A stretch of DNA of 64,000 bases. Origin: a virus. Both the position numbers and the translations under genes were made by a program. The stretch is taken from positions 1 through 64,000 of IMG/VR virus record IMGVR_UViG_3300008266_000037; one strand, given 5' to 3'. Of the stretch, positions 442 to 35,500 are shown one piece after another. The notes under the pieces are model-generated. The model was given only the letters and a program-made list of their open reading frames with translations, had not been told where the DNA came from and made no database searches. Numbering within the stretch: the stretch's first letter is position 1; every line of letters begins with the position of its first letter.

Positions 442-525
442 AAAGCCCTGTAGGGGCTGAATGCGAAGAACCCCCAAAGGGGGTCGGGATTGTCCTGACC
501 CCCATTTTTCCGAAGGAAACAGCCC

Positions 526-7615: not shown

Positions 7616-7858
7616 ATGAACCAACAGCCAATGAGCAAGGCAATGAAGGTTTACCTTGGCATTGCTGGGTGGGTTCTCAGCATTATCGCCCTGACGCAGT
7701 CGGCGCTGATGATGCTGAGCATCAAGGGGTCTTGGGGAGACATCGCCGTTCTGGCTGGCGTCCTCCTCATCATCATGGCCGGAGCGCTCACGCTCTTCGG
7801 CATCAACAAGGGGGCTGAACTCCTCATGCCTCCGCAATCGAAGGACGACGAAGAATGA
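7616..7858 (+). CDS. small membrane protein (2 TM) coupled to SPFH gene
   Basis: Two hydrophobic helices and an acidic C-terminus. Its stop overlaps the start of the next gene. Confidence 0.55.
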   Translation: MNQQPMSKAMKVYLGIAGWVLSIIALTQSALMMLSIKGSWGDIAVLAGVLLIIMAGALTLFGINKGAELLMPPQSKDDEE

Positions 7859-8718
7859 AGAAGACTCTCCTGAGGCTCGGCCTCATTGCTGCCCTGTCTC
7901 TGTCAGCTATCGGCCTTGTCGGCTGTGGTCAGCCCGTCAAGCAGGGTGAAGTCGGCGTGAAGGTGGTCGAAGTCGGCGGCAACGCTGGTGTTCGCAACAC
8001 CGAACTGGGCACCGGTCGCTACTGGAACGCCATCGGCGAACGAATCATCGTGTTCCCCACCACCACGCAGACCTACAACTGGACCGGCGGCGCTTCCATC
8101 CGGTTCCTCAACAAGGACGGTGTTCAGACCACCGCCCCCGTGTCCGTGACGTTCCGCGTTTCGCCGTCCAAGGCCAGCGATCTGGTCCAGACCTACAAGC
8201 TGGGCATGGAAGACATCGTCAACGGTCCGCTGCAACGCTACCTCCAGAACGCCTTCGTCGTGCGGGGTGTGGGGTACACCAGCGAACAGCTCTACGGCGC
8301 TGGCGCTCAGCAACTCTCAGCAGACGTGACCGAGATGCTCCGGCGTGGTTCACGAGATGCCTCTGGCCGGGTGGTTCAGCCCGGTCTGGAATCTCAGGGC
8401 ATCATCATCGAGTCGGTCAACTGGGCCGGAAGCCCGGTGCTTCCTGACTCCATCGTGGCCCGCATCAACGAGGCGACGGCGGAACGGCAGCTGGCATCCC
8501 GTGCCCGTGAACGTCTGGCGACCGCTCAGGCCAACGAGGCCGTGACCATCACCAACTCCAGAGCAAGGGCCGGTGCTCTTGATCTGGAAGGTGCCGCCAT
8601 CCGCCGCAATCCCGAGGTGCTTCGCCTTCGTGAAGTCGAGCGCAGCAAGGGCCTGTGTCCGTTGTCGGCCACCACCTGTGTGCTGGGCGGCGACGTGGCG
8701 GCGATGATCGGCAACTAA
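7855..8718 (+). CDS. SPFH/band-7 (HflK/C-stomatin-like) lipoprotein
   Basis: Lipoprotein signal MKKTLLRLGLIAALSLSAIGLVGC. SPFH-like beta-rich core followed by a long Ala/Arg/Glu coiled-coil. Confidence 0.65.
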   Translation: MKKTLLRLGLIAALSLSAIGLVGCGQPVKQGEVGVKVVEVGGNAGVRNTELGTGRYWNAIGERIIVFPTTTQTYNWTGGASIRFLNKDGVQTTAPVSVTFRVSPSKASDLVQTYKLGMEDIVNGPLQRYLQNAFVVRGVGYTSEQLYGAGAQQLSADVTEMLRRGSRDASGRVVQPGLESQGIIIESVNWAGSPVLPDSIVARINEATAERQLASRARERLATAQANEAVTITNSRARAGALDLEGAAIRRNPEVLRLREVERSKGLCPLSATTCVLGGDVAAMIGN

Positions 8719-9557: not shown

Positions 9558-9750
9558 GTGGTGGCAGACTGGAGCGCAGCACCAGCTACGCAGCCATGAT
9601 GGCAAGGTCACATGGGCCACCATAGAAAGGATCGCTCCCTACTACAGGGTCAGGCTTCTCCGTGGTCCCTGCTCTCAGCTTAAGAAGGCCGGTTCACTAA
9701 GAGTGGCAAAGCAGATTGCCACTGACTGGTTCACCCAGAGGACAACATGA
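9547..9750 (+). CDS. hypothetical small protein
   Basis: 67 aa from the internal ATG, overlapping the upstream stop. Confidence 0.35.
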   Translation: MIPEWWQTGAQHQLRSHDGKVTWATIERIAPYYRVRLLRGPCSQLKKAGSLRVAKQIATDWFTQRTT

Positions 9751-10439
9751 GCAACATCCCGTATTGGTATGACGGCGAACAAGGCCGACACAGAAACGAC
9801 ATCTACCCGTTTCAGGTCCCCAGCAAAAGGGAAGTGAGGGCAGAGAGCAAGAGGCGCCTTACCCTTAACGTCTTGAATGCAATGAGGGCGGTGCCGAAGG
9901 GTTGGTCTATCAAATGGAAGGCATCTCGCCGTCGCACCTTCCGGGTCAACCACACCACCAAAACCATCAGCGTTCCCATGCCCGCTCAATACGCTGGTCT
10001 TCCAGCCCTTGGTAGCGCCATTCATTTGGCCGTCCAGATTAGTAAGGCCATGAATAATGCCGAACAAACCGGCATGGTGCCAGCATTGATGGTCAAGGCG
10101 TGGCCGTTTCTGTTCGGCAAATACTTCAGCCTCCATTACAGGAACGTCATTCCATGTGGGGGGTATGTAGCCAACAGGCACGCCCTAAAGACGGCTGGTA
10201 TTCAGGCTGTGAGAGAAGTTCTCCGGTTTTACCAGTCGCCTGATGCGTGGCGCATTCCCCGGCGCAAGGCTGGCAGCCCCATTCAATGGCAGCGGCATAA
10301 TGTTAACACCAACACCCTGTCCGCTATCGCTCATCGCAAGGTCATGATGGACTACCTTAAGGTCAATGACCCTGCCTACCCCCTTCCAGCTATCGCCAAG
10401 GCGAGGCTGAAGAAGATCAACCAACCCCAACAGCCATAA
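9747..10439 (+). CDS. hypothetical protein upstream of MoxR-VWA pair
   Basis: 230-aa ORF with ATGA coupling. Confidence 0.55.
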   Translation: MSNIPYWYDGEQGRHRNDIYPFQVPSKREVRAESKRRLTLNVLNAMRAVPKGWSIKWKASRRRTFRVNHTTKTISVPMPAQYAGLPALGSAIHLAVQISKAMNNAEQTGMVPALMVKAWPFLFGKYFSLHYRNVIPCGGYVANRHALKTAGIQAVREVLRFYQSPDAWRIPRRKAGSPIQWQRHNVNTNTLSAIAHRKVMMDYLKVNDPAYPLPAIAKARLKKINQPQQP

Positions 10440-10450
10440 AGGAGACCAAC

Positions 10451-11506
10451 ATGGCTCAACAAAAGACTTCGGACATCCCCGTTGTTTCGCCGATGGTGGC
10501 CAAGCAATGCGTCCGCGAGATGCTCAATGCTGGCTCCGCTGCGGTGCCGCCGTTCCTCTGGGGACCGCCCGGTGTCGGCAAGTCCGCCATCGTGAAGGGA
10601 GTGGCTGAAGAAGAAGGTGTCGGCTTCATCGACCTGCGTCTGGTTCAGCTCGATCAGGTGGACCTGCGCGGCCTGCCCTATCTGCTCGACGACAAGGTCA
10701 ACGAGGGCCTGCGCGAGATGCACTTCGCTGCCCCCGGCGGCCTGCCGCGCGAGGGTCGGGGCATCCTGTTCCTCGACGAGTTCCCGCAAGCCACCTCGCT
10801 TGTCCAGAACGCTGCCTCTGAGCTGGTCCTCGACCGTCGCTGCGGCGAGTACCGTCTGCCCGACGGCTGGATCGTCGTTGCTGCCGGCAACCGTCGTCAA
10901 GACCGTGCAGCCACGCAGGAACTGCCCAGCCACCTGAAGAATCGCTTCACCCATCTGGAAATCGACGCCAAGTTCGCCGACTGGGAAGCGTGGGCTCAGC
11001 TGCCGAACGCCACCAAGTGCGGCCCCATCGAGCCCCGGCTGCTCGCCTTCCTCCAGAGCAACCAGTCCCGCCTCAACAACTTCAACCCCGACACCGTGGC
11101 GTCGCCGACCTCCCGCAGCTGGGAGTTCGTCAGCCGTATCCTGCACACCGTCAAGGACAAGCGCGCTCGCAACGCCTTGATCGGCGGCGCAGTCGGCAAG
11201 GGGATGCAGGCCGAGGTCATGGCCTTCCTCTCCGACTCCGAGGACATGCCGACGATGGCGCAGATCATCGCCGACCCGATGACGGCACCCATCCCGGAGA
11301 CCCTGTCCGGCTGCAACGCCGCGCTGGACAATCTGGCCCTGACCGGCCGCCCTGAAAATGCTGAGCCCATTGCTCAGTACATCAGCCGCCACGTCGCCGA
11401 CAGCCAGATGGTCGCTCTGGTCCAGATCATGGCCCGCAAGGACATCACCTCGTGGATGTCTTCGCCCACTCTGGACAAGCTGATGAAGGCCAACGGCCTC
11501 TCCTAA
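10451..11506 (+). CDS. MoxR-family AAA+ ATPase
   Basis: Walker A GPPGVGKS. Walker B ILFLDEF. Sensor-1-like VVAAGNRR. AAA_5/CbbQ-NorQ-like layout. Confidence 0.8.
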   Translation: MAQQKTSDIPVVSPMVAKQCVREMLNAGSAAVPPFLWGPPGVGKSAIVKGVAEEEGVGFIDLRLVQLDQVDLRGLPYLLDDKVNEGLREMHFAAPGGLPREGRGILFLDEFPQATSLVQNAASELVLDRRCGEYRLPDGWIVVAAGNRRQDRAATQELPSHLKNRFTHLEIDAKFADWEAWAQLPNATKCGPIEPRLLAFLQSNQSRLNNFNPDTVASPTSRSWEFVSRILHTVKDKRARNALIGGAVGKGMQAEVMAFLSDSEDMPTMAQIIADPMTAPIPETLSGCNAALDNLALTGRPENAEPIAQYISRHVADSQMVALVQIMARKDITSWMSSPTLDKLMKANGLS

Positions 11507-11528
11507 TCGGGCGGCACATCCAACCAGC

Positions 11529-11565
11529 GGGGGAGGGGAGCAATCCTCTCCCCCATTTCTTTTCG
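11529..11565 (+). terminator. GGGGGAG...CTCCCCC hairpin + U-rich tract between MoxR and VWA genes
   Basis: 7-bp G/C stem followed by ATTTCTTTTCG. Possible attenuator setting the ATPase:VWA ratio. Confidence 0.4.
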
Positions 11566-11573
11566 AGGGACCG

Positions 11574-12800
11574 ATGAGCAAACAAGAACAGCAGTACAAG
11601 GCCACGCAGTATGTGCGTGAAGCGATCGAGTCCATGATCGAGCGAGACCCCTTCTTCGGTCACATCACCGACCAGATGCGTCTGTGCCCCGACGCCAAGA
11701 AGGAGATCAAGACCATCGGCACCAACGGTCGTCTCCTCGTGTACGACAGCGAATGGGTGGTTCGTTATCGTGAGGTTTATGGCCCCGCCAAGTTCGCCAC
11801 CATCCTCGCTCACGAGGCGGCACACGTTGCGTTCGGCCACCCCTACCGCATGGGCGACAAGCGCCCCGAGATCTACGACAAGGCGTGTGACGCCGTCATC
11901 AACGGCAACCTTCGTCGCAAGGGCTATGACATGCCCAACGAAAGCTTCTTCTTTCCCGGCGCTGAGGACATGACGGTCGAGGAGTGCTACCGCAAGCTGG
12001 TGGAAACCAGCGGCGAGGGGCAGGACAAGAACAACCAGCGCACCCGACAGGCTCAGAGTAGCGGCAAGTGTTTCTCCCCTGATGTCGGCACGGATGCTGA
12101 AGAAGAAGCCAAGGCCAAGGGCGAAAGCGAAGGTCAGGGCCAAGGTCAGGGCGACGAGGACGAGGACGCCGAGGACAAGATCCGCGAGGGCGTTGCCCGT
12201 GCTGCTCAGCGTGCCCGCAAGGCTGGCAAGATGCCCGGCGAGTGGGAGCAGATGATCACCGACTCATTCCTCAGCAAGAAAAGCTGGAAGGATGAGCTGC
12301 GTCAGTTCCTCGGTGGCGGCGAGCAGAAGGAACCTTCTTGGTCCAAACCCAACCGTCGCTATGTCCATCAGGGCGAGTACCTCCCCGGTCCCTCGAAGTT
12401 CGGCCCCGGTCGTATCGTGCTGGCCGTTGACGTTTCCGGCTCTGTCTCCGGCTCTCTGGTCGAGAAGTTCTGCGCTGAGGTGCGCAAGATCAACATCGAC
12501 CTTCAGCCCGAAGCCATCGACGTTATGACCTGCGACACCCGTGTTGCATGGCAGGAGGAGTTCGGACCTTATGATGATGTCCAGATCCCTGCTAGGGCCA
12601 TCACCGGTGGCGGCACCAACTTCTCTCCTGTGTTCAGGAAGGTCAAGGAGATGGGCGTCCAGCCCAAGGCTCTGGTGTACTTCACCGATCTGCAATGCCA
12701 CGACTTCGGCGAGAGGCCTGACTACCCTGTTCTCTGGGTTGTCTGGCCCGGCGGCTGGAACAAGGCACCGTTCGGCAACATCGTTCACATGGATGACTAA
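11574..12800 (+). CDS. VWA-domain protein with N-terminal zincin-like metallopeptidase domain (DUF2201-type MoxR partner)
   Basis: HEAAHVAFGH HExxH motif. Acidic GQGQGDEDEDAED linker. MIDAS-like DVSGSVSGS in the C-terminal VWA domain. Confidence 0.8.
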   Translation: MSKQEQQYKATQYVREAIESMIERDPFFGHITDQMRLCPDAKKEIKTIGTNGRLLVYDSEWVVRYREVYGPAKFATILAHEAAHVAFGHPYRMGDKRPEIYDKACDAVINGNLRRKGYDMPNESFFFPGAEDMTVEECYRKLVETSGEGQDKNNQRTRQAQSSGKCFSPDVGTDAEEEAKAKGESEGQGQGQGDEDEDAEDKIREGVARAAQRARKAGKMPGEWEQMITDSFLSKKSWKDELRQFLGGGEQKEPSWSKPNRRYVHQGEYLPGPSKFGPGRIVLAVDVSGSVSGSLVEKFCAEVRKINIDLQPEAIDVMTCDTRVAWQEEFGPYDDVQIPARAITGGGTNFSPVFRKVKEMGVQPKALVYFTDLQCHDFGERPDYPVLWVVWPGGWNKAPFGNIVHMDD

Positions 12801-21275: not shown

Positions 21276-21466
21276 TGGACAGGATTGATTTGGATGACGA
21301 TGGCCAGCTTGACGATCTGGTTCTCAACGATGTGTCCATGGTTCGGGTTGAGAGGATGGACGATGCCGCTCTCTGGATGAAGTTCTATGGCGCAGACGGG
21401 AGGGAACACGCGGTCAGGGTTGGTATTGTCGAAAAGAAGCTGAGGATTTTGTACGAGGAAGAGTAG
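21272..21466 (+). CDS. hypothetical protein
   Basis: 64-aa ORF. Confidence 0.4.
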   Translation: MMDRIDLDDDGQLDDLVLNDVSMVRVERMDDAALWMKFYGADGREHAVRVGIVEKKLRILYEEE

Positions 21467-22353
21467 TGAAGTTCACCAACAAGCACCGTCTGCCTGAGCC
21501 CCTTGTCCGCGCCCTGTCGGCTGACAAGTACTCGAAGGGGGATGCGCGCATCTCGATCACGGGACTGATGGGGTCTCCGCGCGTTAACGTCCTGCGCTCG
21601 AAACACCATGCCGACATTGAGACCGACGTGATGGACCGGCTCTGGTCTGTGTTCGGCACCACCGTTCACAACATGCTGGAGGAGGGCAGCGCGGGTCTGG
21701 ATGACTACATTGCCGAGGAGCGCATCGACACCGTTCTTGACGGCTGGAAGATCTCTGGCGGCATCGACGTTCAGCACTTCACCGATGGTCAGGTCGGTAT
21801 CCGAGACTGGAAGGTCACGGGCGCATGGGCGGTTATGAACAACAAGCCCGACTGGGAACGGCAGCTCAACTCCTATGCCTATCTGGTCGAGAAGGAGAAC
21901 GGTCACACCGTCAAGGACATTCAGATCGGTGCCATCATCAGGGACTGGAAACGGTTTGAGGCCGACAGAAATCCTGACTACCCAAGAACCCCAGTGGTCA
22001 TGGTGGACATTCCCTTGTGGGGCTTCAAGGCAAGGGAGCAGTACCTGCTGAGCAGGATAGCCCTGCACAAGGAGGCTTACCGGAAGGCTGAATGGGGTGA
22101 ACCGCTACCGCCCTGCACTCCAGATGAAATGTGGGAGAAGCCCACTGTGTACGCTGTGAAGAAGCCGGGAAGTTCGAGGGCAATCTCCCTGCACTCCAGC
22201 AAGGATGAGGCGCTAGACAAGGCGATCAAGACCAAGAACAGCATGGAAACAAGGCTGGGCGAAAGAACGAAGTGCGAGGGCGGGTATTGCGAAGTGTCGG
22301 CCTTCTGTGATCAGTTCGCGGAGTACAAGAGGCTGAAGGCGGAGAGACAATGA
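21466..22353 (+). CDS. PD-(D/E)XK nuclease, Cas4/RecB-exonuclease-like with C-terminal Cys cluster
   Basis: Motifs GGIDVQHF, IRDWKVT and QLNSYAYL. Cys cluster C(PPC)...CEGGYCEVSAFC, four Cys in all. Confidence 0.65.
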   Translation: MKFTNKHRLPEPLVRALSADKYSKGDARISITGLMGSPRVNVLRSKHHADIETDVMDRLWSVFGTTVHNMLEEGSAGLDDYIAEERIDTVLDGWKISGGIDVQHFTDGQVGIRDWKVTGAWAVMNNKPDWERQLNSYAYLVEKENGHTVKDIQIGAIIRDWKRFEADRNPDYPRTPVVMVDIPLWGFKAREQYLLSRIALHKEAYRKAEWGEPLPPCTPDEMWEKPTVYAVKKPGSSRAISLHSSKDEALDKAIKTKNSMETRLGERTKCEGGYCEVSAFCDQFAEYKRLKAERQ

Positions 22354-22865
22354 GTGAGGTTTGGCTTCCGGTTCCGGGTTTCTACCTTGAGGCCAGCAGC
22401 GAGGGGCGGGTTCGTTCCACGCCGAGAACGATTGTCCGAAAGAACGGCGCGCCGCAGTTCTGTCCCGGCAAGGTGTTGACGCCCAATCCCGGCAACAAGT
22501 ACGGCCACCTTTATGTGACGGCAAGGGCCATCGGTTCCGAGAAGCAGAACTACCACGCAGTCCACGCCCTTGTGGCTCTGGCCTTCCATGGCCCTAGGCC
22601 AGACGGTCAGATCACCAGACATGAGGATGGGGACCTGACGAACAACCGGCCTTCCAATCTCAAGTACGGGACCTACACCGACAACAAGGCGGACGAGGCC
22701 ATTCACGGAAGGGGAAGGGCGAGATTGCTCCGGCATGAAGTAGACACTATGCGTGTGCTGAAGCTATACGGCGTGAAGAACAAAGACCTGAGCAGGATGT
22801 TTTCCATCGACCCCGGACAGGTCAGCAAGATCTGTTCTGGCAAGTCGTGGGTATTTGAAGAGTAG
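22350..22865 (+). CDS. HNH homing endonuclease (HNH_3/NUMOD4-type)
   Basis: Motif VHALVALAFHG...RHEDGDLTNNRPSNL. Confidence 0.7.
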   Translation: MSEVWLPVPGFYLEASSEGRVRSTPRTIVRKNGAPQFCPGKVLTPNPGNKYGHLYVTARAIGSEKQNYHAVHALVALAFHGPRPDGQITRHEDGDLTNNRPSNLKYGTYTDNKADEAIHGRGRARLLRHEVDTMRVLKLYGVKNKDLSRMFSIDPGQVSKICSGKSWVFEE

Positions 22866-22875
22866 GGAATGAGTA

Positions 22876-23193
22876 ATGTTTACACCCATCCGTATCGGAG
22901 GGCAGGATGTTGACCCCGTTCATGGCGGGGTTCTGCTGGATGTTGTCGCCGACTATGGGCTGCCAGATCCAGACGTAATGTATGGCGCCGGTCGAAAGAC
23001 CGCGAACCTTTCATCCGCCCGTATAGATGCGTGGCGGAGGCTAGACGCTATGGGCGTTAAGCGATCTCACATTGCTAGGATGTTTGGTGTGAACAAGGCC
23101 GCCATCACGGTCGGCATTCAACGGGCTGAAGCTAAGGACATTGGCCTGTGCCCATGCTGCGGTCGCCCATTGGGTGACAGACGGGGAGGATAG
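22876..23193 (+). CDS. hypothetical protein with HTH-like segment
   Basis: KRSHIARMFGVNKAAITVGIQRAE resembles a sigma-region-4-type HTH. Confidence 0.45.
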   Translation: MFTPIRIGGQDVDPVHGGVLLDVVADYGLPDPDVMYGAGRKTANLSSARIDAWRRLDAMGVKRSHIARMFGVNKAAITVGIQRAEAKDIGLCPCCGRPLGDRRGG

Positions 23194-23194
23194 G

Positions 23195-23413
23195 ATGCAC
23201 AACCCGAAGGGCTGCTGGTGCCTGACCTGCGTTGACGAGTGGGTCAAGGAAGAACTGTTCGTTCCGTCGGTCGAGGAGATTTTCGATCCTCGTGTGGTGC
23301 GCTTTAATGTTTGCGCCACCTGCGGGAACAAGCGGTGCCCCCATGCCACCGACCATCGCCACGCCTGCACCAACTCCAACGAACCCGGACAGAGGGGAAG
23401 TATCTATGAGTGA
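23195..23413 (+). CDS. Cys-rich zinc-ribbon protein
   Basis: 72 aa from the internal ATG after GGAGG. Cys/His ligands CWCLTC...CATCGNKRCPH. Confidence 0.45.
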   Translation: MHNPKGCWCLTCVDEWVKEELFVPSVEEIFDPRVVRFNVCATCGNKRCPHATDHRHACTNSNEPGQRGSIYE

Positions 23414-23606
23414 TGAAAAGGTCGACTACGCCATTGAGTGGAACGATTTGGTTGCCTTCATCAGGGCTATTGCAGATGTTGACGGAACTTTGTCTTCGAC
23501 CGATCCGCTTAACGCCCCCATGTTGAGGCTTATCCGAAGAATGCGCGCGGCCATAGATGAATACGACGCGCAAGAGCTGATCGCAAAAGGAGATAGCGAT
23601 GAATGA
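23406..23606 (+). CDS. hypothetical protein
   Basis: 66 aa from the internal ATG. Confidence 0.4.
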   Translation: MSDEKVDYAIEWNDLVAFIRAIADVDGTLSSTDPLNAPMLRLIRRMRAAIDEYDAQELIAKGDSDE

Positions 23607-23928
23607 AGAAGACAAACCTATCCCTGAGGGCATGAAGAGATACACCATGCTGGGCCTCAGCATTGTGGCTCCCGACGGTATCCCTGAAGAACTGATTGGT
23701 GCCATCATCGAGGGCATGGTTCAGTCTGGTCATGCCGTGTTTGACCCTGTAACCAACACGCTCAAGAGCAATCCGGATATCATTGACGGGGAAATCCAAG
23801 GCCTGTCCATGCAGGTCGATGGTCTGGGCAACGTGGTCAACTCTCGGGCGCTCAGCCGCAATGAGATCAAGGACGATCTCGGCATCGACGAAATCAACTT
23901 CAACAAACCGCCTCGCCGCAAACTGTGA
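23599..23928 (+). CDS. hypothetical protein
   Basis: 109-aa ORF. Confidence 0.45.
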   Translation: MNEEDKPIPEGMKRYTMLGLSIVAPDGIPEELIGAIIEGMVQSGHAVFDPVTNTLKSNPDIIDGEIQGLSMQVDGLGNVVNSRALSRNEIKDDLGIDEINFNKPPRRKL

Positions 23929-24308
23929 AGCCGACCGGCTGGAAAATCGAGGAAGTCCAGCCGGAAAAGCGGCGTTCGCTTTCAGCGAAAGAAAAGCTTG
24001 ACGTTCTAAAATCCCACCCCCATTGTCCGATCTGCCGATCAGAGGTCAGTGTCAGCGATGCCGAATGGGATCACTGGATACCGCTCGAACTGGGAGGCTC
24101 CAATGAGGTGGACAACTTTCGAGGACTGCATCCGCCCTGTCATAAGGAAAAGACCCGACAGGACGTGAAGGCAATCGCCAAGGCTAGACGGCTTCGCAAG
24201 AAACGTCTCGGCCTGACGAAACCCAAGAAGGCCATTCCTTCTCGTCCATTCGCAAAGAGGAAGAACAGCTTTGAGACCCGCAATAGAAAGGCTCCTCGAA
24301 AGGATTGA
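23925..24308 (+). CDS. HNH endonuclease
   Basis: Motif CPICRS...EWDHWIPLELGGSNEVDNFRGLHPPCHKEKT. Confidence 0.7.
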   Translation: MKPTGWKIEEVQPEKRRSLSAKEKLDVLKSHPHCPICRSEVSVSDAEWDHWIPLELGGSNEVDNFRGLHPPCHKEKTRQDVKAIAKARRLRKKRLGLTKPKKAIPSRPFAKRKNSFETRNRKAPRKD

Positions 24309-24738
24309 GCCTGACACGAACGGGGGGTGCTGGCTTTGGTCGGGCTCTCCCGGCCAGAACGGCTATTCCCAGATACAGGTTGGTACAACAAGAGGAAACC
24401 AGCGACCGCACCCAGGCCACCGTATTTCGTACGAACACTTCAAGGGGGAGATCCCCGAAGGGTTGGTTGTCCGTCATAAATGCGACGTAAGATTGTGTGT
24501 GAACCCAGACCATCTTGTGGTTGGAACCCGCCGGGAGAATGTTCAGGACGCAAAAGACCGAGATCGTCATGCTCGCGGCGAGCGATTTAACCGAGCCAAG
24601 CTGACCGACGCCGGGGTTATGGAAATCCGTCGTCGATACGCTGACGGAGAAACACAGCCCTCCTTGGCCAAGGAGTATGGCGTATCACAGACTACAATCA
24701 ACTCGGTGTGTCAGAGAAAGTCCTGGTCTCATGTCTAA
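24271..24738 (+). CDS. HNH homing endonuclease (HNH_3-type) with C-terminal HTH
   Basis: Motif GCWLWSG...HRISYE...VRHKCDVRLCVNPDHLVVGTRRENVQD. TTG start after AAGAGG. Confidence 0.65.
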   Translation: MRPAIERLLERIEPDTNGGCWLWSGSPGQNGYSQIQVGTTRGNQRPHPGHRISYEHFKGEIPEGLVVRHKCDVRLCVNPDHLVVGTRRENVQDAKDRDRHARGERFNRAKLTDAGVMEIRRRYADGETQPSLAKEYGVSQTTINSVCQRKSWSHV

Positions 24739-25507
24739 AAAAATCCATACAGCTCTGGTGGCCGCCGCCAAAGAGATCCCCCATCTTCGCAAGGGAGAGC
24801 AAAACGCCCACGGCAACTATGCGTACGTCCCGATTGATGGGTTTTACGAACAGGTTGCTCCGATCGTTCTGAAGCACGGGCTCACATGGAGAGTGAGGGA
24901 GGTGTCGTGCGAGACCTTTGAGGTGCAAGGGCGCTCCCGAATGGAGACCGCCGTCAGGACCACCTACGAGGTAGATGTAATGCACGAGGAGGGAGATATC
25001 ATCTCCTCCTTCTTCAGGGCCACGATCACCCACCCCCTGCAAGGGGCACAGACCGCTGGTTCCAGTATGTCCTATCTGGACAAGCTGTTTCTTCGCACCA
25101 CCTTCCACGTCGTCACGGGAGAGAAGGATGCCGACGCAACCGACAATGCCGTTTTCGACGCTGGACCAGCTAATGCTGGAGGTGGGCAGGGACGGGGCAA
25201 GGGTGCGGCAAAGCCGAAAGGCCAAGGCGCTGAACCGGATGCGTTCGACCTTGGGGGAACAGCACACCCATCCCCAGCTTCAGTACGCCCTGCTGACACA
25301 GGAGCCTTTGCGGCAGACGCCAAGGCCTTCACGGAACTGTCCGTTGCCTTCATCGGCTCCGCCTCCACCGAGGAAGAGCTGACCAAATACTGGACGGACA
25401 ACGAGAGCACGTTCAACCAGCTTAAGACAGCAGACCCAGAGGGTTACAAATCCCTGATCGCTGGCTTTAAGACCCGCAAGACCCAGCTGAAAGGAGCTGA
25501 TGCGTGA
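24731..25507 (+). CDS. erf: ERF-family single-strand annealing protein
   Basis: NAHGNYAYVPIDGFYEQVAPIVLKHGL and MSYLDKLFLRTTFHVVTGEKDADATDN resemble P22 Erf core blocks. Confidence 0.65.
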   Translation: MSKKIHTALVAAAKEIPHLRKGEQNAHGNYAYVPIDGFYEQVAPIVLKHGLTWRVREVSCETFEVQGRSRMETAVRTTYEVDVMHEEGDIISSFFRATITHPLQGAQTAGSSMSYLDKLFLRTTFHVVTGEKDADATDNAVFDAGPANAGGGQGRGKGAAKPKGQGAEPDAFDLGGTAHPSPASVRPADTGAFAADAKAFTELSVAFIGSASTEEELTKYWTDNESTFNQLKTADPEGYKSLIAGFKTRKTQLKGADA

Positions 25508-25824
25508 CGACCTTCGACAATACCAACAAGGGTGTTCTGTTCACCAACGACAGGAAGACAGCGCCCAACCAACCGGACTTCACCGGCAACGTGGTGCTCA
25601 GCAGGGAACTGATCCTGTACGTCACCAAGGAAATCGCTGAAGGACGTGAGCCCAAGATTGCGGTCAAGGGCTGGCGTAAGACCTCCGGCGCTGGGAAGAC
25701 CTTTGTCAGCCTGTCTGTCGAGGAGCCTTGGGACCCCAACAAGGCACAGACCCCGAGACCGAGAGCCCAAGTCCAAGCCGCACCACCACCGGCCTACGAC
25801 GTTAACGACGATATTCCATTTTAA
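25504..25824 (+). CDS. putative short ssDNA-binding protein with SSB-like C-terminal DDIPF tip
   Basis: 106 aa ending ...PPPAYDVNDDIPF. Sits immediately after erf. GTG start. Confidence 0.5.
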   Translation: MTTFDNTNKGVLFTNDRKTAPNQPDFTGNVVLSRELILYVTKEIAEGREPKIAVKGWRKTSGAGKTFVSLSVEEPWDPNKAQTPRPRAQVQAAPPPAYDVNDDIPF

Positions 25825-25844
25825 GGAAATCCGAGGAGAGAGAC

Positions 25845-26720
25845 ATGAGCGTGCAACGTGTGAGAGACAACACCGCCTACCGGCCGCAGCGTGAAAAGCG
25901 GCGTGGTAAGTCCGGCAACTACCACCGGGTCCACGAAGAAATCCTGAAGCGCGCCAACAAGGACGGCGTGTTTCAGACTACCGAAACCATGAAGGCTATC
26001 CGTGAGGATCTGGGTCTTCCGCATTCCTCTGTGTCGTCAACCACCTTCCAGTGGTCCGACCCCACTGGGCTGCGCGGTTTCCGCCGGGTTCGACTTCTGT
26101 CGCCCCGGTTCTCCAAAAGCGACCCTGCCGAAATGGTGGACAGCCCCGCCGAAAGCCCTCAGGTCAAGGTGAAGCCTGTCGGCAGCTTCCCACCCCCCAT
26201 CCACCCGAACAAGAATGGGCCGTTCTATATGGCTGTCGGACAAAAGCCGAGAGGCCTCAGCCGCTCTGAACAGATCGTTGAGCAAGTCATTCTTATGGCG
26301 CCCAAGATCTCTGACAGTCGTGGTCGCTGGCCTCTTCGCACTATGGTCGAGAAGCTCGCCGACCTTGGCTTCAGTGCTGTCAGCATCTACCGGGCGGTGA
26401 AGAGCGAAGTCATTGCCGGTCGCATCAAGCGTCACGGCCTGACCCGCTGGCTCGTGGAGCAAGCACCGGCTCCTGTGCGGATCGACCCCCTTGTTACGCC
26501 CAACAGCTTCAAGGGTCCGAAGACGCAGACCATGATCGACGAAGAGCGCGCGGTCATTAAGCCTGAAGGTATTCCGACCGGTGAGAAGGCGGCGGCTCTG
26601 GATGGGCTGATCACTCAGCTGATCCAGAAGAAGCTGGAGCAACCCGAAACCCTTTCTCTGATCGACGGCTTCGTTAAAGCCCGGATGGAGGAAGTTATTC
26701 GTCGGCAGCTGGGCCTGTAA
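25845..26720 (+). CDS. hypothetical protein with two wHTH-like segments (possible replication/regulatory protein)
   Basis: 291-aa ORF with GAGGAG RBS. Confidence 0.5.
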   Translation: MSVQRVRDNTAYRPQREKRRGKSGNYHRVHEEILKRANKDGVFQTTETMKAIREDLGLPHSSVSSTTFQWSDPTGLRGFRRVRLLSPRFSKSDPAEMVDSPAESPQVKVKPVGSFPPPIHPNKNGPFYMAVGQKPRGLSRSEQIVEQVILMAPKISDSRGRWPLRTMVEKLADLGFSAVSIYRAVKSEVIAGRIKRHGLTRWLVEQAPAPVRIDPLVTPNSFKGPKTQTMIDEERAVIKPEGIPTGEKAAALDGLITQLIQKKLEQPETLSLIDGFVKARMEEVIRRQLGL

Positions 26721-26724
26721 CCTG

Positions 26725-27150
26725 ATGGCGGATTTGCCTAGCAAACACGCCGTTCACTTCGAGGCGGTGAAGATCGCCATGAACCAGACCAAGGATGGGT
26801 GGAAGCTCATCCTTGCGGTTCACCCTAACGATGCACCCGAGGAAGTTCTTCGGGCGCTCGTTGGGGCGAGGTACATGATCGCCGCCGTTGAGTTGGATGA
26901 GCATGAGCAGCCGAAGCCCCTGTTGAGCGATGCCGAGAAGGATGTTCGGTATGCTGGTCAGCTGTGCCGCACACCCGCCTTTGCCACTTGGATGTGGAGC
27001 AGGGGCTGGGCTCAGGAGATGACAGAGGCGTCTGCTGCCGATGGCCTTAGGCTAGTGCTGGGGATCGCTTCTCGATCAGAGATCGCCACCAATGAAGATG
27101 TAAGAAGGAGATTCCGTGAGCTTGCCCAATCCTACTTGGACGATAGCTGA
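26725..27150 (+). CDS. hypothetical protein overlapping integrase start
   Basis: 141 aa. 35-nt overlap with int, in the position an xis-like gene would occupy. No clear HTH. Confidence 0.45.
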   Translation: MADLPSKHAVHFEAVKIAMNQTKDGWKLILAVHPNDAPEEVLRALVGARYMIAAVELDEHEQPKPLLSDAEKDVRYAGQLCRTPAFATWMWSRGWAQEMTEASAADGLRLVLGIASRSEIATNEDVRRRFRELAQSYLDDS

Positions 27151-27952
27151 CCTGATCAGCTCATACCGGGGCAGTCGGCACAACCGGCTTCTTGCTCCGG
27201 CCACCCGAAGAAATACCGAGAAGACCTACCGATGGCTGGAACCGTTCAAGGACCGGCTTCTGGACACCATCACCAAGGCTGAGATAAGCACGGTTATCGA
27301 CGGCCTGCCTGCTGGCAACGCTCACATCTTTCTGTCCCGCGTTCGCGCTTTGTTCAGCTACGCTCGCTCGCTGGAAGAGATGACCAAGGACCCCTGTGTA
27401 GGCCTCACCACGCCTGCTACTGGTGAGTACCGACCTTGGACCCAGAAGGAAGTAGACGCCTTCCTGAAGGGCTCCAGCGACACTGTGGGCATGGCTGTGA
27501 AGCTGGCCTATTACACCGGCCAGCGGATGAGTGATGTCCTGACCATGAAGTGGAACGACATCCGGGACGGCGGTCTGGATGTTGTGCAGATGAAGACGAA
27601 GCAGCCGCTTCACATTCCCCTGCACCCTAAGCTGAAGGCCGCCCTGAAGAAGCACTCTCAGGGCAGCAAGTCCGATTACATCATTGCCATGAAAGACGGC
27701 AGGCCCTACACCCCGCATGAGTTTCGTGGTCGTTTTCGGGACACCCGCATCGCTCTTGGTTTGCCCGACGATATGGTGTTCCATGGGCTTCGCAAACTGA
27801 CGGCGGTCAACCTCGCCGAGAAGGGCGCCTCTACGCAGGAGATCATGGCTGTTGGTGGGTGGAAGTCCTCTCGCCAAGTGGACCACTACTGCAAGGGGTC
27901 TAATCAACGTAAGCTGGCCAAGCAGGCCATTGGAAGACTGGGAGCCCTGTGA
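27116..27952 (+). CDS. int: tyrosine integrase/recombinase
   Basis: R in YYTGQRMSDV. HxxR in FHGLRK. Catalytic Y in VDHYCK. GTG start after AAGGAG. Confidence 0.8.
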   Translation: MSLPNPTWTIADLISSYRGSRHNRLLAPATRRNTEKTYRWLEPFKDRLLDTITKAEISTVIDGLPAGNAHIFLSRVRALFSYARSLEEMTKDPCVGLTTPATGEYRPWTQKEVDAFLKGSSDTVGMAVKLAYYTGQRMSDVLTMKWNDIRDGGLDVVQMKTKQPLHIPLHPKLKAALKKHSQGSKSDYIIAMKDGRPYTPHEFRGRFRDTRIALGLPDDMVFHGLRKLTAVNLAEKGASTQEIMAVGGWKSSRQVDHYCKGSNQRKLAKQAIGRLGAL

Positions 27953-29368: not shown

Positions 29369-29584
29369 ATGCGAAAGAACTCTGCCCTCCCTAGGCTGAT
29401 TGCCCGCCTCCAAGAAGGCCCTCTAAAGGGAACCGACTGGAGACAATGCTCTCACAGTCAGCACACCCTGTATGAGAACATCCGCAGGCTTCGGTCTATG
29501 GGGTGGGACATACGGACGATAGGGGATTCCGGTAGGCCCGGAGAGTATATCCTTATAGCCCCGCCTGACGTTCCAGTTCCCTGA
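29369..29584 (+). CDS. hypothetical small protein (possible DNA-binding)
   Basis: 71-aa ORF ending convergently against the giant gene. Confidence 0.35.
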   Translation: MRKNSALPRLIARLQEGPLKGTDWRQCSHSQHTLYENIRRLRSMGWDIRTIGDSGRPGEYILIAPPDVPVP

Positions 29585-32500
29585 TTTGCTGGATGGTGAG
29601 GTTCATGAGAACCTGCTCTTCGTCACGCAGCTGCTTAACGATGGCCACCTTAGAGGCGTCGTCCATCTGAGGGTCCGTTTGGACCTCTCTAATCTCTCGC
29701 CTCGTCTTGATGCGTTCGCGCTCCATGTCAGCCGCGAAGTCGTAGATCATCATCCGCTCGGGACTGCGGGCCAGCAGACTGTTCACCGCCTCGTAGTTGC
29801 CTTCACTCTCGAACTGATCGACAGACCTACCGAACTGAAGGTAGGGCGTGATCAGCTTGTCGTAAGAGGTGCGGATAGATGCGCCACTGACATTGCCGCC
29901 AAACGACCTGTAGAGCGGCCAGTCTCTTGCGGCCAGCTCTCTTCCCTCAACGGCCTTGCTTTGCGGATCAATGGCAAAACCCATCAGGTTCCCGACCCTT
30001 CCAACAAACCGGCCCATGCCGCCAAGGTATGCCCCGGCCATGTGGTCAATGTCGTCGGGGTGAACCTCAATAGCGCCGGGGGTGTAGGCACTATCCCCGC
30101 CAGTGAGGCGAGAAGCCACGTCAGCAATGCCTTGGCTGGTCTGAGATGTTGACGGGAAGAACGACTGAGAGGCTGGCTGCTCAAGGCCCGGCATACCGGT
30201 CGGGTGAATGGGCTTGCCAGTGAAGTCAGTATTTACAGCTGTTTCGACCATAGGTCTGAACACAGACGGGAAGATGGCAGACACCCAACTTCCGTTGGTG
30301 CCGAAGGGGTTGAACGCCGACAGGACGGAGGAGCCCGTTTTCATAGCAGCATCCAACGGACCGCTCTTGCCCATCGCTACGCGCGCCATGTTCCGGCCAG
30401 CGGTATGGAAGACATTGTACCCAAGCGGCATGGGGATCTTCAGATAGTTCCCGCCTCCCAGCATGATGACCATGTTCTTCTCAAGGATGTAATCCTCGAT
30501 CTTATCGTACTCGCTGGTGCCGTATTCATCCTCTGGCGAGAGAGCCGACATAAGCACCTCTTGCAGAACGCCAGCGACCATGATTCCCATGATCACCTTT
30601 TGTACGCGAGGACTGGTCGCCGCCTGCATGAGAGTGGCGGTGCCTTGGGTGGCAGCGTTGAAGAACATATAGGCCGCGTTCATGTACGGCCCCCACTCCC
30701 CCTTGCGGTTGAAGTTGACAGTCATGTCCTTAGCCGCCTGAGCCGCGCGCTCCTCGCTCCAGCCCTGCTCCCTGAAAGCCTCAAACACGGCTAGACGGGT
30801 AGCCCCCTCAACGGAATCGTTGAGGTCTTCCAGATACTTAAAGCCCTTGCCTATTGCCTTCATGGATAGCCGGAGAGCCTTGGCCCCGGCGTTCTTGTCC
30901 TGCGGGTCAATGTCGTTCAGCTCTCTGGTGATCTGCTGCATCTGGTCCTCAATGGAGGTGAGACCATACACACCAGTCAGGCCACCAAGCTCAGACAGCC
31001 TGTCCATTTTTGCCTCAAGGACCGGGTCTTTCTTGCCCAGCCTCTCGCCTACCGCTTGACCGGCATAGACCATAGCCTTCTTGCTGATCTTCTGCCACGC
31101 ATCCGGGCTGTACTGACCAGACTGGATCATGGCCGCCTGCACGTCACGCAGGAAGTTGGCGACAAGGAACTCAGGGTTATATGATGTCTGCAACTGAGAC
31201 ATCAGGCGGGTCAGCCTCGCCATGCGGGACAAGATCAGGTCAGGGAGTGAACCCCCAAAGGACTGAATCTTCGACAGGCTGTCGCCCAGCCTCTTGTTCT
31301 TGACCTCAAAGATAACGTCCTTGCCGTTTTCTTTTGTGACGAAGTAGTTGGGGTCTCCCTTTACGTCCTTCGGACTCATCCGGGTCTTACCGTTCACGAC
31401 CACGCGCTGCATGGGGTGAGCGGGAAGTTCAACCAGATAGTCTTTGGTGAGTTCAGGGTTGTCACGGACGAACCGCGCGAGAGACTGACCGACCCTGACC
31501 TTCTCGCTTCTAACGATAGCCTCTTGGTTCTGCATGATCACGTTGGCCAGCATGTCGCCAGCGTAGGTTTGGCGACCCTTCATCGCCCGGTCTTCTTTTC
31601 CTCCGACCTTGTATGCCTTGCCGGTTCTGGCGTGCTCATCTCCAGTGAACCAGTCCTCTGCCGTGTTGCCGACAGCAAACCCTCTCAGTGGCACATAGTG
31701 TTTGAAGCGGGGCACAAGGGGAGACACGATGTCATCCCACTTAGGCGACAGGCCGGAGGTCTCTCTGGTCTTCCTTGTGTAATCCAGAATAGCATCGACC
31801 TTACTGGCAGCTGCCTCGACCTTGCTTTGCTTAGAGTAGCCGTCGAACCAGTCCATGATGGCTGCGGCTTCCTCGTTGGTCATGCCAGAGCCTGCGTCCA
31901 GCATCTCGTCGGTGATCTCTCCTGTGTCAGGGTCAATCTCCTTGGCCTTCCGCACTTCCTCAATGAACTTATTTCTCTCGGGCGCATGGCGGGCGTAGAG
32001 GTACAGGTTTAGAACGGCCTCCGACGGGTGGACGTGGGAGCTTTCCAGCTCTAGTCTGGCGGCGTTTGAAACACTGGACAGCTTTGCAAGGTCAGCCTCG
32101 GTCGCGCCAATCTGGTGGATAGCAAGGTAAGCCGGGCGCCACAGGTTCTCGTGTGCCTTGTCCATCTTATGCTGAGAGCGGCGGGTATAGAGGGTGTCGG
32201 CCAGAACGGGGTCGTTGGTGTCAGTCACCCGACCGCCAAACTTCGCCACCTCGGAAACCATCCTACGAACCGGGAACATCCGGTCTTGCGCCAGCGTCGT
32301 GGCCCTGTCGATAGCATCCCTAGCGTCAGCCTCAGCAACCTTGATCGGGCTGACCCTTGTTCCTTTGGCAAGATAGTCCTGCACAATGGTGTAGCGCGCT
32401 GCCATTTCCGCAGCACCAGACCCACCCATAGCCGCTACCTCAGGGCTTGGGCCTCCGATGGTCTTGCCTGTGGTGGACATTGCCGCATCGAGGGCGTCAA

Positions 32501-35500
32501 GGTCAGCCTCAGTCATCCCGCGAGGAAGGGTCGCTCCCTTGGAGTACAGGCGGAAGCCCTCTCCGTTAACGACCTCCCGCATCTTGGGAGTGATGTGGAA
32601 GGTAGGGGCGTCAAGGGTTCTGGCAGGCATTACCCCGCCTGTAATCGGGTGGTCGCCTTCTGGAATGTCAAACTGTCGATTGTTAATCTGCGCCCCGTAA
32701 GGCTTGATCTCCTTGCCGATTATGGATGTAATCACATCGTCGTAGAACTTGCCGACACCCTTTACAGACTGGTCATTACTGTACCGTTCCACTTGAATGT
32801 GTCCCGGCGTCCAGCTGATCTGGGTAATGCCGTTGTCAATAGCATCCAGAATGATGCGTCTGGTGGCCAGCTTAACCCATGCGTTATTCTTGAAGGGAGC
32901 TTCCGGAGGGGTGTCATACACTTCAAGAAGCTGAATCTTGTCGTATTCCTCTTGGGCTTTACGAAGAGAGAAGCGAATCGCCTCAGCAGCCTCGTGCGTC
33001 TGTCTATCTGGCCAGTACTTATAGTTTGAGGCGCGCGTGAATCTGGACAAGACATTGTGTTCGCCGGTCCGACTAAAGTCTGGGGGCTCGGCCATGTTAT
33101 TTTCGTAGAACTCAATGGCCTTTTCCTTTTCAGCCTGCAAGATCCTTTTAGCCTCAGCGACTTTTACCTCAACAATGTGCGAGCGGCGCAGGCGCTGGTG
33201 CCAGTCAGACTGGATTTCTTCAATGAACAGGGTTGGAACGCCGTTAACGTCATCCCTGATCTTGTAGCGAACGTGAGCCAGCACGTTGTACTCTCTGAAG
33301 TGCTCAGTGGCCCTGAAAGCCACTGGACTCAGCTTCGGGTTTATTGAACCCGGAATAGTGATCAGTAGTTCTGTCTCGGTGTGTCCTCCACGAAGTGTGT
33401 AGTTGCTGTGGTTGGCAACCAACCCGTCGTCTACCGTGTAATCGTTATACGTGTCCCACTCAGCAGCCGATGTCATCTTTTTGGCGACGTAACCTTCAGC
33501 CTGCTCTCGGTCCATTTGGCGACCGTCCATGTCCAGCTCATCCATAAGCTCTTGAACCATGGCGTCGAACATCTCCTTGTCGACAGGGTCTTCGATAGAC
33601 CCCGGACCCCTCTTGATGTCCTCCAAAACAATGTTGTTTTCCTCAAAGAACTCCTTCAACTCCTCAAGGGTCATGACCTTGTCAGGGTTTTCCTTAAGCA
33701 GGTCAGTAAACCCAACCCAATCCATCTCGTCCTTGGTCACGCCCGGCTGTGACTCAAGGGTCTTCAGCCATTGCTGAGCGGTGGCCTTCTTGGTGGTCTG
33801 GGCGTTGATGACCTGACCAAGGCGGGAATGAATACGGGCTCCAGCGTAAGAGAAGCGTCGGTCAGAAATGCGGGGGATGTTGTCCGGACGAATGCCAAAC
33901 GGGTCCACAAAAGACGCCATCTCCAGCATCTCATCGGCCATGTCATTGAGACCAGCCGCCCTGTTCTTCTCGGCCAGAGCCTGAAGGTTTTCGATGGTCT
34001 CCAACGGGGTAAAGCCGTTGCGGGAGTTGTAGTGAGACACGCCAGAAGCGGCAGCCTTCTTGGCAGCGATCTGAGCAAGAAGAGCGTTCTTCTCGTCCAA
34101 AGTCATCGAGATACCAAGGTTCTCGTTCACATCTACCGTGCGCCAAGGGGCATTACGTAGGCGCTCGGCTGGCGTCATGTTAATGCGCGACTCTGTGTTA
34201 CGCGCCTCCATCTCTCCATAGAGAGATTTGTAGACCGCAAAGTTTGTCGCCCGCTTGTATATGTCCGACATGTTGGAGGGGGGAACACCCATGACACTCA
34301 AGGCGCCCATAAGGTGCTCAACACTCTTGATCTGCGATGGGGTGTAGGTGGACCGTTCAGAGCCTACAGCCTTAAAGAAGCCGTCAATGTCCTGATTTTT
34401 TGATAGGGTTACCAGCTCCTTATTGACGGACTCAAACCGACGCCTGACCGCCTCACTCACCGTGGCAAGAGAAGGCATCCTGTTGGGGTTTCCGCCCCCG
34501 GCCATTCCCTCAAATGTCTGGATAGCGTGCTGGATTTCATGCAGCAGGACGGCTCTTATGGTTTCAGCCTCTTGAATGAGAGGCACGCCCCCCTTCCCGA
34601 CGGCAATCAAAATCCTATCAGGCGGCTCTCCGGTGCGAACTGGCGTCATGGCCGCGTTGCCCACAGTGAAGGAGCTGCCATCGTTTGTCTCGTCGGCAAA
34701 CTCAACCGTAACGTTTCTTAGGAAGGGGTAGGCCTCAAACAGCTCAGGATGATCCAGCACCTCTTCAATGGTGGAGTATATGGACGGACTCAGAACGCCT
34801 TGTTTCTGGCGGATGACAGCAAGGTCGCCGCGCAGATCAGAAGCGTTTGCAACAGGCTTAAGTCTGGAGTCATTGTCGCTGATCTCATAGCGAGGTTTCC
34901 CGTCAGGACCACGGAACCAACCGGTGTGCAGATAGATGGTGCCGCGAGAGTCGCCAGCCTTCTCCATCTTGAGGAACTTGGCGTAGTTGTCCCGTGGTGG
35001 GCGCTGGGATTTGGTGCTGGCAAAACTGAAGCGGCGGTCGGAAGGAACGGGAGGTTCCGCAAAGGGAAGCATGACCTCTTCACGGGCGGCAATCTTAAGG
35101 TTAGAGCCGGGAACGTTGTAAGGCTCCCTTCTTCTCACATTCCTGCTATCGAGAGTTCTTCTCCCTTCAGTGCTAAGCGCCTCCGCTTCGGCTTGCTGAG
35201 CATCAGCGGGCCAACCCTCCATCTGTCTGACGGCAAGCTGCGTCTGCCTGAGAATGGCCGAAACAACCATCTCTTCTTCCGGTCGGCTGTCGGCTCTTTT
35301 GGAAACGCCAATAACAATCCTGTCTGGGAGGGTTTGTCCGTCCCCGGAAACCATAAGAGAGCCGTCAGGCTTTTTAAGCGTGAACTCTACGGGAAGTGGA
35401 GCTAGTCCCGGATAGGCCTCAAACAACTCCTTGTGCTTGAGGACATCTTCAAGAACTTCATAAGTAGAGGTGGCGTTGGGACCGGCCTTGGCAATCCTTT

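Follow-up and report, generated by a model that had tools for sequence, protein, structure and literature searches.

An AAA+ ATPase and zincin–VWA gene pair of the N4 gp24/gp25 type in a polyvalent-protein podovirus

Phage N4 gp24 and gp25 belong to the 14-gene core of N4-like phages, where they are listed without function and classed as middle genes (PMC4193335; PMC2784036), and a literature search returned no experimental function for N4 gp24/gp25 or for DUF2201. Iyer et al. 2021 (Viruses 13:63) reported from jumbo phages of group 2.2 a MoxR–vWA pair that includes an N-terminal metallopeptidase and proposed a role in virion assembly or processing, citing p618 and p892 of Acidianus two-tailed virus (ATV) (PMC7824862). 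Here we analyze a 64,000-nucleotide (nt) stretch of viral DNA (IMG/VR record IMGVR_UViG_3300008266_000037, positions 1 to 64,000; hereafter the window) that carries two neighboring open reading frames (ORFs) of this kind: ORF A, an AAA+ ATPase, and ORF B, a protein predicted to join a zincin domain, an acidic linker and a VWA domain. Judged by sequence, the pair is the already catalogued N4 gp24/gp25 module (PHROG 1297 plus PHROG 1314) in another phage lineage. By analogy with NorQ/NorD, we consider it probable that the pair is a phage copy of a widespread AAA+/zincin–VWA module that would act as an ATP-driven remodeling machine, here probably a proteolytic one.

In the cellular systems NorQ/NorD and CbbQ/CbbO, a MoxR hexamer binds one VWA partner whose VWA finger enters the pore, the metal-ion-dependent adhesion site (MIDAS) of that partner binds an acidic patch of the client, and ATP hydrolysis remodels the disordered linker joining the VWA domain to the N-terminal domain (PMC9976466, PMC13036017). 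NorD and CbbO are built like ORF B, with a disordered linker between the N-terminal domain and a VWA domain at the C-terminus; their MIDAS is essential, and the genes of each system are adjacent. Unlike them, ORF B has a predicted zincin as its N-terminal domain and a minimal VWA domain of ~128 amino acids (aa), and ORF A bears a helical C-terminal extension of ~170 aa. NorQ and CbbQ are too dissimilar for a direct PDB match, and the best solved-structure match of the ORF A family profile is midasin (Rea1/Mdn1). Midasin has a D/E-rich stretch immediately ahead of its MIDAS domain, which the acid-rich linker ahead of the ORF B VWA/MIDAS parallels; it differs in being one giant eukaryotic polypeptide in which six AAA domains are fused and a peptidase is absent, and the resemblance is one of design, not orthology. 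ATV p618 (MoxR) and p892 (VWA), likened here by description, form a virus-encoded MoxR–VWA chaperone pair and differ in coming from an archaeal virus, in lacking a peptidase domain and in acting in extracellular tail growth. FtsH, an M41 fusion regulated by the SPFH proteins HflK/C, likewise combines an AAA+ motor with an HExxH zincin; it belongs to another AAA+ clade and another zincin family, whereas the window activities would sit on separate polypeptides joined via the VWA domain, and a reading of the N-terminal sequences of ORF A and ORF B, with no transmembrane or signal-peptide prediction run, reveals no membrane anchor. The linkage to an SPFH gene is loose. We take the FtsH likeness as analogy only.

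The gp24/gp25-type pair in phages and bacteria

BLASTP aligned ORF A with N4 gp24 (31% identity, E = 4e-42) and ORF B with N4 gp25 (26% identity, E = 2e-31), each near full length, and the two pairs share gene order, strand and PHROG families (phrog_1297, 'ATPase', 5.5e-80 for ORF A; phrog_1314, 2e-84 for ORF B). N4 gp25 carries the motifs HELWHVGLLH (HExxHxxxxH) and DTSGS (DxSxS), of the same type as those in ORF B, and N4, like the window phage, has an SPFH lipoprotein homolog (gp20) upstream of the pair. Unlike N4, the window phage lacks a virion RNA polymerase (vRNAP) and has a polyvalent protein, an integrase and Erf. The jumbo-phage pair of Iyer et al. is identical to the window pair in domain architecture and pairing, and tblastn located it in PA5oct-like and Asteriusvirus-like jumbo phages; unlike these, the window genome is ~68 kb and podovirus-type, with the pair in an early/replication block.

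At the nucleotide level the region matched none of 50,697 phage records, and tblastn against the same records recovered relatives of ORF B in 421 and of ORF A in 831, all below 60% identity. The carriers were mostly N4-like and jumbo phages, several of them annotated as 'N4 gp24-like' or 'gp25'. Identical copies of both proteins already exist in public collections, on a 68-kb contig. A single-protein search for related loci found none in viral contigs; in metagenome contigs its sole matches were two fragments of this same phage. With clusters defined at 50% identity across public genomes and metagenomes, a zincin–VWA profile matched 35,269 cluster representatives at E ≤ 1e-3 and 17,479 at E ≤ 1e-30, among 1.84 billion.

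Co-occurrence, which an earlier reading of the DNA from its letters and reading frames alone (hereafter the sequence-only reading) had put forward as a check of the pair, held up in local tblastn searches. An ORF A homolog lay upstream of an ORF B homolog on the same strand in 15/15 independent loci, comprising N4, Presley, a Rhizobium N4-like phage, PA5oct-like and Asteriusvirus-like jumbo phages, Pag-Yong1, four metagenomic phage contigs and five bacterial contigs, with distances ranging from overlap to five intervening genes. Scanning one genome per species with the ATPase alignment gave at least 460 loci, and a zincin–VWA gene followed downstream on the same strand in 73 of the best 80 bacterial loci; four of the seven exceptions end no more than 320 nt from the ATPase gene, and the count is 73 of 76 where at least 1.4 kb of downstream room was available. 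As a feature of a phage the pair is not unusual, given an N4 core pair, a jumbo-phage precedent and a huge bacterial family: the ORF pair itself is a known, very widespread two-gene module. Finding one more carrier lineage, a polyvalent-protein podovirus, is an ordinary observation about a module that matters, being a core pair in N4-like phages, recurrent in jumbo phages, represented by more than 17,000 zincin–VWA clusters and nearly always paired with the ATPase in the sampled bacteria. What our analysis adds is a spacer hairpin kept with differing stems, the loss of HExxH set against an invariant MIDAS, and an optional DUF3150-like third gene, all of which could guide experiments and leave the classification unchanged.

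Clustering of neighboring ORFs across the 80 bacterial loci revealed clade-specific partners and no universal third one. The DUF3150-like gene (a weak, sub-threshold match; ~290–310 aa) lies between the ATPase and VWA genes in 9/80 bacterial loci and is found in phage relatives too (locus L006, 3902-4798; Pag-Yong1, locus L014, 29704-30576), making a three-gene variant of the module; a hidden Markov model (HMM) of this gene found nothing in the window. A 230-aa ORF immediately ahead of ORF A was considered as the counterpart of the intervening gene of L006 and Pag-Yong1 and rejected, as the two show no similarity. In 26 bacterial loci, mostly of Desulfovibrionaceae, an unannotated conserved protein of ~160 aa directly follows the VWA gene, and its HMM found nothing in the window or in the phage loci. 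A leucine-rich-repeat-variant (LRV) protein of ~450 aa directly precedes the ATPase gene in 15 Campylobacterota loci.

Bacterial copies (Desulfovibrionaceae, Acidobacteriota, Campylobacterota) match ORF A at 40-47% identity, more closely than does any copy from a cultured phage, and Pag-Yong1, whose portal is 44% identical to that of the window phage, has an ATPase only 31% identical. This pattern may reflect transfer of the module between cells and phages, or else rapid divergence.

Domain features and the intergenic hairpin

ORF A carries each of the motifs by which AAA+ ATPases are recognized (Walker A, Walker B, sensor-1 and arginine finger; Table 1). Among 90 homologs (alignment A1), Walker A residues G38, P40, G41 and K44 are invariant and S45 is kept in 89; the Walker B strand, residues 105-110, reads ILFLDE. 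ORF A matched Pfam AAA (3.5e-7, 31.2 bits against a cut-off of 21.2) and also DUF815; ORF A alone stayed below the Pfam cut-offs for AAA_5 (20 bits against 22) and bpMoxR (16 against 27), so the label 'MoxR' required further evidence, which the family supplied. At E ≤ 1e-3, weak matches to AAA_5, bpMoxR and AAA_3 occurred in 80/90, 43/90 and 39/90 family members (best E-value only ~1e-8), and a family profile built from alignment A1, searched against all PDB sequences, reached the midasin AAA domains at 2e-25 with the next match at 2e-9. Such profiles were needed, as single-sequence PDB searches gave only Walker-A-level matches for ORF A and none for ORF B; NCBIfam matched neither protein. In the AlphaFold2 (AF2) model, strands at residues 75-80 and 88-93 precede the strand at 104-109, a predicted helix-2 insert/pre-sensor-1 β-hairpin arrangement in a fold nearest to MoxR, dynein and midasin, and we infer that the hairpin at residues 75-93 is the helix-2 insert typical of these clade-7 AAA+ proteins. 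As is characteristic of the MoxR group, a VWA gene follows, beginning 67 nt downstream of ORF A. We conclude that ORF A is a predicted member of the MoxR/AAA_5 group, in a distinct subfamily poorly captured by current Pfam models.

ORF B matched Pfam DUF2201_N with 138 bits against a cut-off of 23.2. Its HExxH motif falls on a predicted helix (residues 71-86) and H89 in the loop that follows, which gives the putative protein the HExxH signature and third ligand of a zincin; among 104 homologs (alignment A2), H80 is kept in 97, E81 in 93, H84 in 98 and H89 in 102. A profile restricted to residues 1-145 of ORF B found only zincins in the PDB (MJ1213 minigluzincin, 1.8e-4; BepA, 2.4e-3; an M48 peptidase, 2.5e-3; HtpX and Ste24 as well), with these matches in register over the strand and the HExxH helix. 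The AF2 model has a predicted local distance difference test score (pLDDT) of 89, with a minimum of 60-67 across residues 171-200 of the linker. This linker is 31-112 aa long in the 104 homologs, with 22% D/E against 14% for the whole protein. The VWA fold carries the DxSxS...T...D pattern of a MIDAS. N4 gp25-type proteins are widely named 'HNH endonuclease', in phrog_1314 and in the GenBank records of many homologs; since Pfam finds in them only DUF2201_N and DUF2201 and no HNH domain, this label looks like a propagated mis-annotation.

The sequence-only reading had placed the pair at positions 10451-12800, where both reading frames are present, and its account of the proteins stands: a MoxR-class AAA+ ATPase, by the midasin profile match and the AAA_5 matches across the family, and a VWA partner that has a HExxH zincin at its N-terminus and an acidic linker, by Pfam DUF2201_N/DUF2201, the motifs and a complete MIDAS. 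Of the domain families it had named, DUF2201_N and DUF2201 were matched, whereas AAA_5 fell under its cut-off for ORF A itself.

Good Shine-Dalgarno sequences precede both ORF A and ORF B. In the spacer between the two genes, a terminator scan located the hairpin and U-tract that had also been noticed in the sequence-only reading, with 11 pairs (8 of them G-C) and a GCAA loop, followed by ATTTCTTTTC. It folds at -24.1 kcal/mol (z = -3.4 against shuffled sequence), is one of the two strongest terminator-like sites in the first 20 kb of the window, and resembles the intrinsic-terminator consensus of a GC-rich stem-loop and U-run. The second of these sites, at window positions 479-503 (+), consists of the hairpin GGGGGTCGGGATTGTCCTGACCCCC followed by ATTTTTCC; its stem ends, G5...C5, are the same as in the spacer hairpin, and no other site of equal strength occurs in those 20 kb. 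A GC-rich hairpin occupies the same spacer position in 7/7 relatives (46-100% ORF B identity), where about six different stem sequences each form 8-12 pairs, and a U-run follows in 5/7. Bacterial ATPase and zincin–VWA genes, by comparison, often overlap. The ORF B start codon lies only 19 nt past the stem, so ORF B would be transcribed only by read-through and the hairpin would not act as a full terminator. Most likely the hairpin would lower ORF B expression relative to ORF A or stabilize the ORF A message, either of which fits a stoichiometry of many ATPases to one adaptor.

MIDAS conservation, peptidase-site loss and candidate activities

All five MIDAS residues are retained in 104/104 zincin–VWA homologs of alignment A2. 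The full H-E-H-H set is intact in 92/104 and in ORF B, and is absent in 12 (P0122, P0123, P0135, P0137, P0139, P0141, P0142, P0146, P0189, P0224, P0231 and P0235). Because HExxH has been lost repeatedly and the MIDAS never, the conserved core activity would depend on the MIDAS, and presumably on the ATPase, with proteolysis lying outside the core.

ORF B shares the N-domain/linker/VWA layout of NorD and CbbO, from which we infer a similar cycle in which the zincin would be the working domain at the N-terminus. ORF A would form a hexameric ring, on which a single copy of ORF B would dock via its VWA domain; the MIDAS metal would capture an acidic residue of the target protein, and ATP hydrolysis would pull or twist the linker and so bring the N-terminal domain onto the target. 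With all four catalytic residues present in ORF B, this domain would probably cleave what it reaches. As for the target, the pair is embedded among small + strand ORFs beside a divergently oriented primase/helicase, with the structural genes on the - strand more than 16 kb away, and the same synteny recurs in relatives L006, L010 and L101 and in Pag-Yong1. The early/replication location and the predicted cytoplasmic products make a replication-phase phage or host protein a likelier target than a virion protein; this location, shared by relatives, and the middle-gene status in N4 both point to a non-structural client and leave virion assembly as the main rival.

Several observations weigh against a proteolytic remodeling machine with a non-structural client. 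Both fold searches with the whole ORF B model returned VWA matches alone, leaving the zincin fold unconfirmed by this route because the VWA domain dominated all matches. Two ORF B relatives of ~80% identity are changed at the catalytic glutamate (E81K and E81L), and the protein of phage relative L006 has lost the zincin motif entirely, so that proteolysis may be an addition kept by most lineages, including that of ORF B, and may be minor here. In one jumbo phage, fEgEco12, structural genes flank the pair. The hairpin stands without a U-run in 2/7 relatives and the 167-nt N4 spacer has no comparable hairpin, which makes the attenuator reading clade-specific and uncertain.

Under the virion-assembly alternative, the pair would serve as a chaperone and maturation protease that folds or assembles, and trims, large or low-complexity structural proteins such as the 3268-aa polyvalent protein encoded in the window. 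Lineages that carry the pair often package giant proteins, N4 its giant vRNAP, and polyvalent proteins occur in both the window phage and Pag-Yong1. The structural genes around the fEgEco12 pair are annotated as such and accompanied by an Hsp70-like gene, and the alternative has a published proposal (Iyer et al. 2021, PMC7824862) and a precedent in ATV p618/p892 tail development (PMC7159879) behind it. Set against this, the pairs of the window, Pag-Yong1, L006, L010 and L101 sit in the early/replication block, with the virion genes on the other strand; N4-like pairs lie beside dCTP deaminase, helicase, polymerase and thymidylate synthase genes and fall in the middle-gene class (PMC4193335); and the family is far commoner in bacteria, which have no virion to build. 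The peptidase site is also dispensable in close relatives, which argues that the conserved core function lies elsewhere than in cleaving virion proteins. The sequence-only reading had named 'zincin-rich virion proteins' as possible targets, a suggestion whose sole support is a sub-threshold SprT-like zincin match within the 3268-aa protein, the other peptidase being M15 (non-zincin). On balance we regard a virion-assembly role as unlikely.

The contrast between an invariant MIDAS and a repeatedly lost HExxH bears equally on a second alternative, that the pair is a classical MoxR–VWA chaperone for metal cofactors or enzyme activation, remodeling a phage or host metalloenzyme with the zincin-like domain as a binding or adaptor module. 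Such a role is established for NorQ/NorD and CbbQ/CbbO, and N4-like pairs lie near enzymes of nucleotide metabolism. The few annotated cellular loci have neighbors of metal or redox character: a 490-aa Fer2/FNR-like protein directly upstream of the ATPase gene in Rhodocyclaceae-type loci L001-L003, FeoAB and a P-type ATPase in bacterial locus L004, and tungsten/molybdenum AFOR enzymes in L005. Yet the intact HExxH...H of 92/104 homologs and ORF B argues for selection on catalysis in most lineages, the neighbor clustering across 80 bacterial loci produced no single conserved metalloenzyme partner, and no candidate client gene adjoins the pair in the window. We hold this explanation to be distinctly unlikely.

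A link to the NTP-dependent MoxR–vWA 'ternary' conflict systems, as the sequence-only reading suggested, or to an anti-defense derivative of them, would make the pair a threshold switch that releases an effector. The weak bpMoxR matches in 43/90 ATPase homologs agree with it, as would the early gene block, where counter-defense genes often sit. The bpMoxR score of ORF A itself, however, is below the cut-off, and the neighbors in the window include no VMAP, iSTAND, FtsH, β-propeller or effector array; the locus has no third component of the kind that marks ternary conflict systems (Kaur et al. 2020). The ternary systems trace back to CoxD/CoxE-like pairs and seldom include a metallopeptidase (PMC7159879). 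With no third component and no PADLOC match, we reject membership in the ternary systems; this explanation is largely refuted and very improbable.

A more specific role, also improbable in our estimate, would be that of a host-directed, ATP-gated protease for takeover or counter-defense. Here the acidic linker would act as a pseudo-ligand holding the MIDAS off at rest, until the MIDAS captures an acidic patch of a specific host protein and the AAA+ ring feeds that protein, unfolded, into the zincin. The spacer hairpin would set an ATPase-to-adaptor ratio of ~6:1, and the upstream SPFH lipoprotein, common to N4, might localize the machine. If true, this would give a function to two N4-like core genes, and equally to a bacterial family with over 17,000 clusters.

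The host phage and its gene neighborhood

The phage origin of the window, also recognized in the sequence-only reading, is backed by portal, DNA-ejection protein, primase/helicase, integrase and Erf genes. Its portal is 35-44% identical to those of Pelagibacter phages HTVC023P/027P, Planktothrix phage Pag-Yong1, Roseobacter phage CRP-901 and Caulobacter RW phages, and the host phage, which encodes a polyvalent protein as well as an integrase, is a podovirus related to HTVC023P, Pag-Yong1 and the Caulobacter RW phages. Assignment to the N4-like phages (Schitoviridae) was rejected, given the missing vRNAP, a portal of another lineage and the presence of integrase and Erf. The 3268-aa ORF was likewise considered as an N4-type vRNAP and rejected on account of its polyvalent domains LPD38 and LPD23; further matches are to giant-protein PHROGs and to a DarB-like antirestriction family, and the sub-threshold SprT-like match covers its residues 1593-1613. 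A 'large polyvalent protein' is annotated in Pag-Yong1 too, a relative by portal. The recombination/lysogeny-type block at 21466-27952 (+) suggests a temperate or formerly temperate phage.

Table 1. Features of the gene pair and of its surroundings in the window
Feature	Position (nt)	Strand	Basis or remark
ORF A, AAA+ ATPase, N4 gp24 homolog, 351 aa	10451..11506	+	
ORF A Walker A GPPGVGKS, residues 38-45	10562..10585	+	Conserved in homologs
ORF A predicted β-hairpin, residues 75-93	10673..10729	+	AF2 secondary structure; strand 2 to Walker B strand
ORF A Walker B, D109-E110	10775..10780	+	90/90 homologs
ORF A sensor-1 N147 to Arg finger R165	10889..10945	+	Both 90/90 homologs
Spacer hairpin, candidate terminator-like or attenuator element	11529..11564 (hairpin 11529-11554)	+	Terminator scan
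ORF B, predicted zincin + acidic linker + VWA, N4 gp25 homolog, 408 aa	11574..12800	+	ORF list, Pfam, PHROG, AF2
ORF B DUF2201_N 'putative metallopeptidase', residues 12-272 (catalytic core ~30-145)	11607..12389	+	Pfam 4.6e-40
ORF B HEAAHVAFGH, residues 80-89	11811..11840	+	H80, E81, H84, H89 predicted zinc ligands/catalytic base
ORF B low-complexity acid-rich linker, residues 141-204, with DEDEDAED at 194-201	11994..12185	+	pLDDT, composition
ORF B VWA domain, residues 281-407	12414..12794	+	Pfam DUF2201 ('VWA-like') 1.4e-22
ORF B MIDAS D286, S288, S290; T348; D372	12429-12443; 12615-12617; 12687-12689	+	
Band_7/SPFH lipoprotein (phrog_200)	7855-8718	+	1.7 kb upstream of ORF A
Conserved 230-aa ORF	9747..10439	+	Ends 12 nt before ORF A; no Pfam/PHROG match
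Exonuclease	21466-22353	+	
HNH endonuclease genes, two	22350-22865 and 24271-24738	+	
Erf-like annealing protein	24677-25507	+	
Tyrosine integrase	27116-27952	+	
3268-aa ORF, polyvalent protein	29553-39359	-	Pfam LPD38 1.8e-41, LPD23 4.2e-20

The 230-aa ORF keeps its position in close relatives L010-L012, where it is 44-61% identical, against 86% for the ATPase and 72-77% for the VWA protein, diverging faster than either. It is a possible clade-specific companion of the pair; its absence from more distant loci makes membership in the module uncertain. The SPFH lipoprotein aligns with N4 gp20 (29% identity, E = 2e-33), which is encoded 0.85 kb upstream of gp24 (L013, 257-1093). An SPFH gene is also present in relative L011 and is not found within 8.8 kb upstream of the pair in L010. 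The SPFH gene and the pair thus recur as a loosely associated trio in unrelated phage lineages, which recalls the regulation of AAA+ proteases by SPFH proteins.

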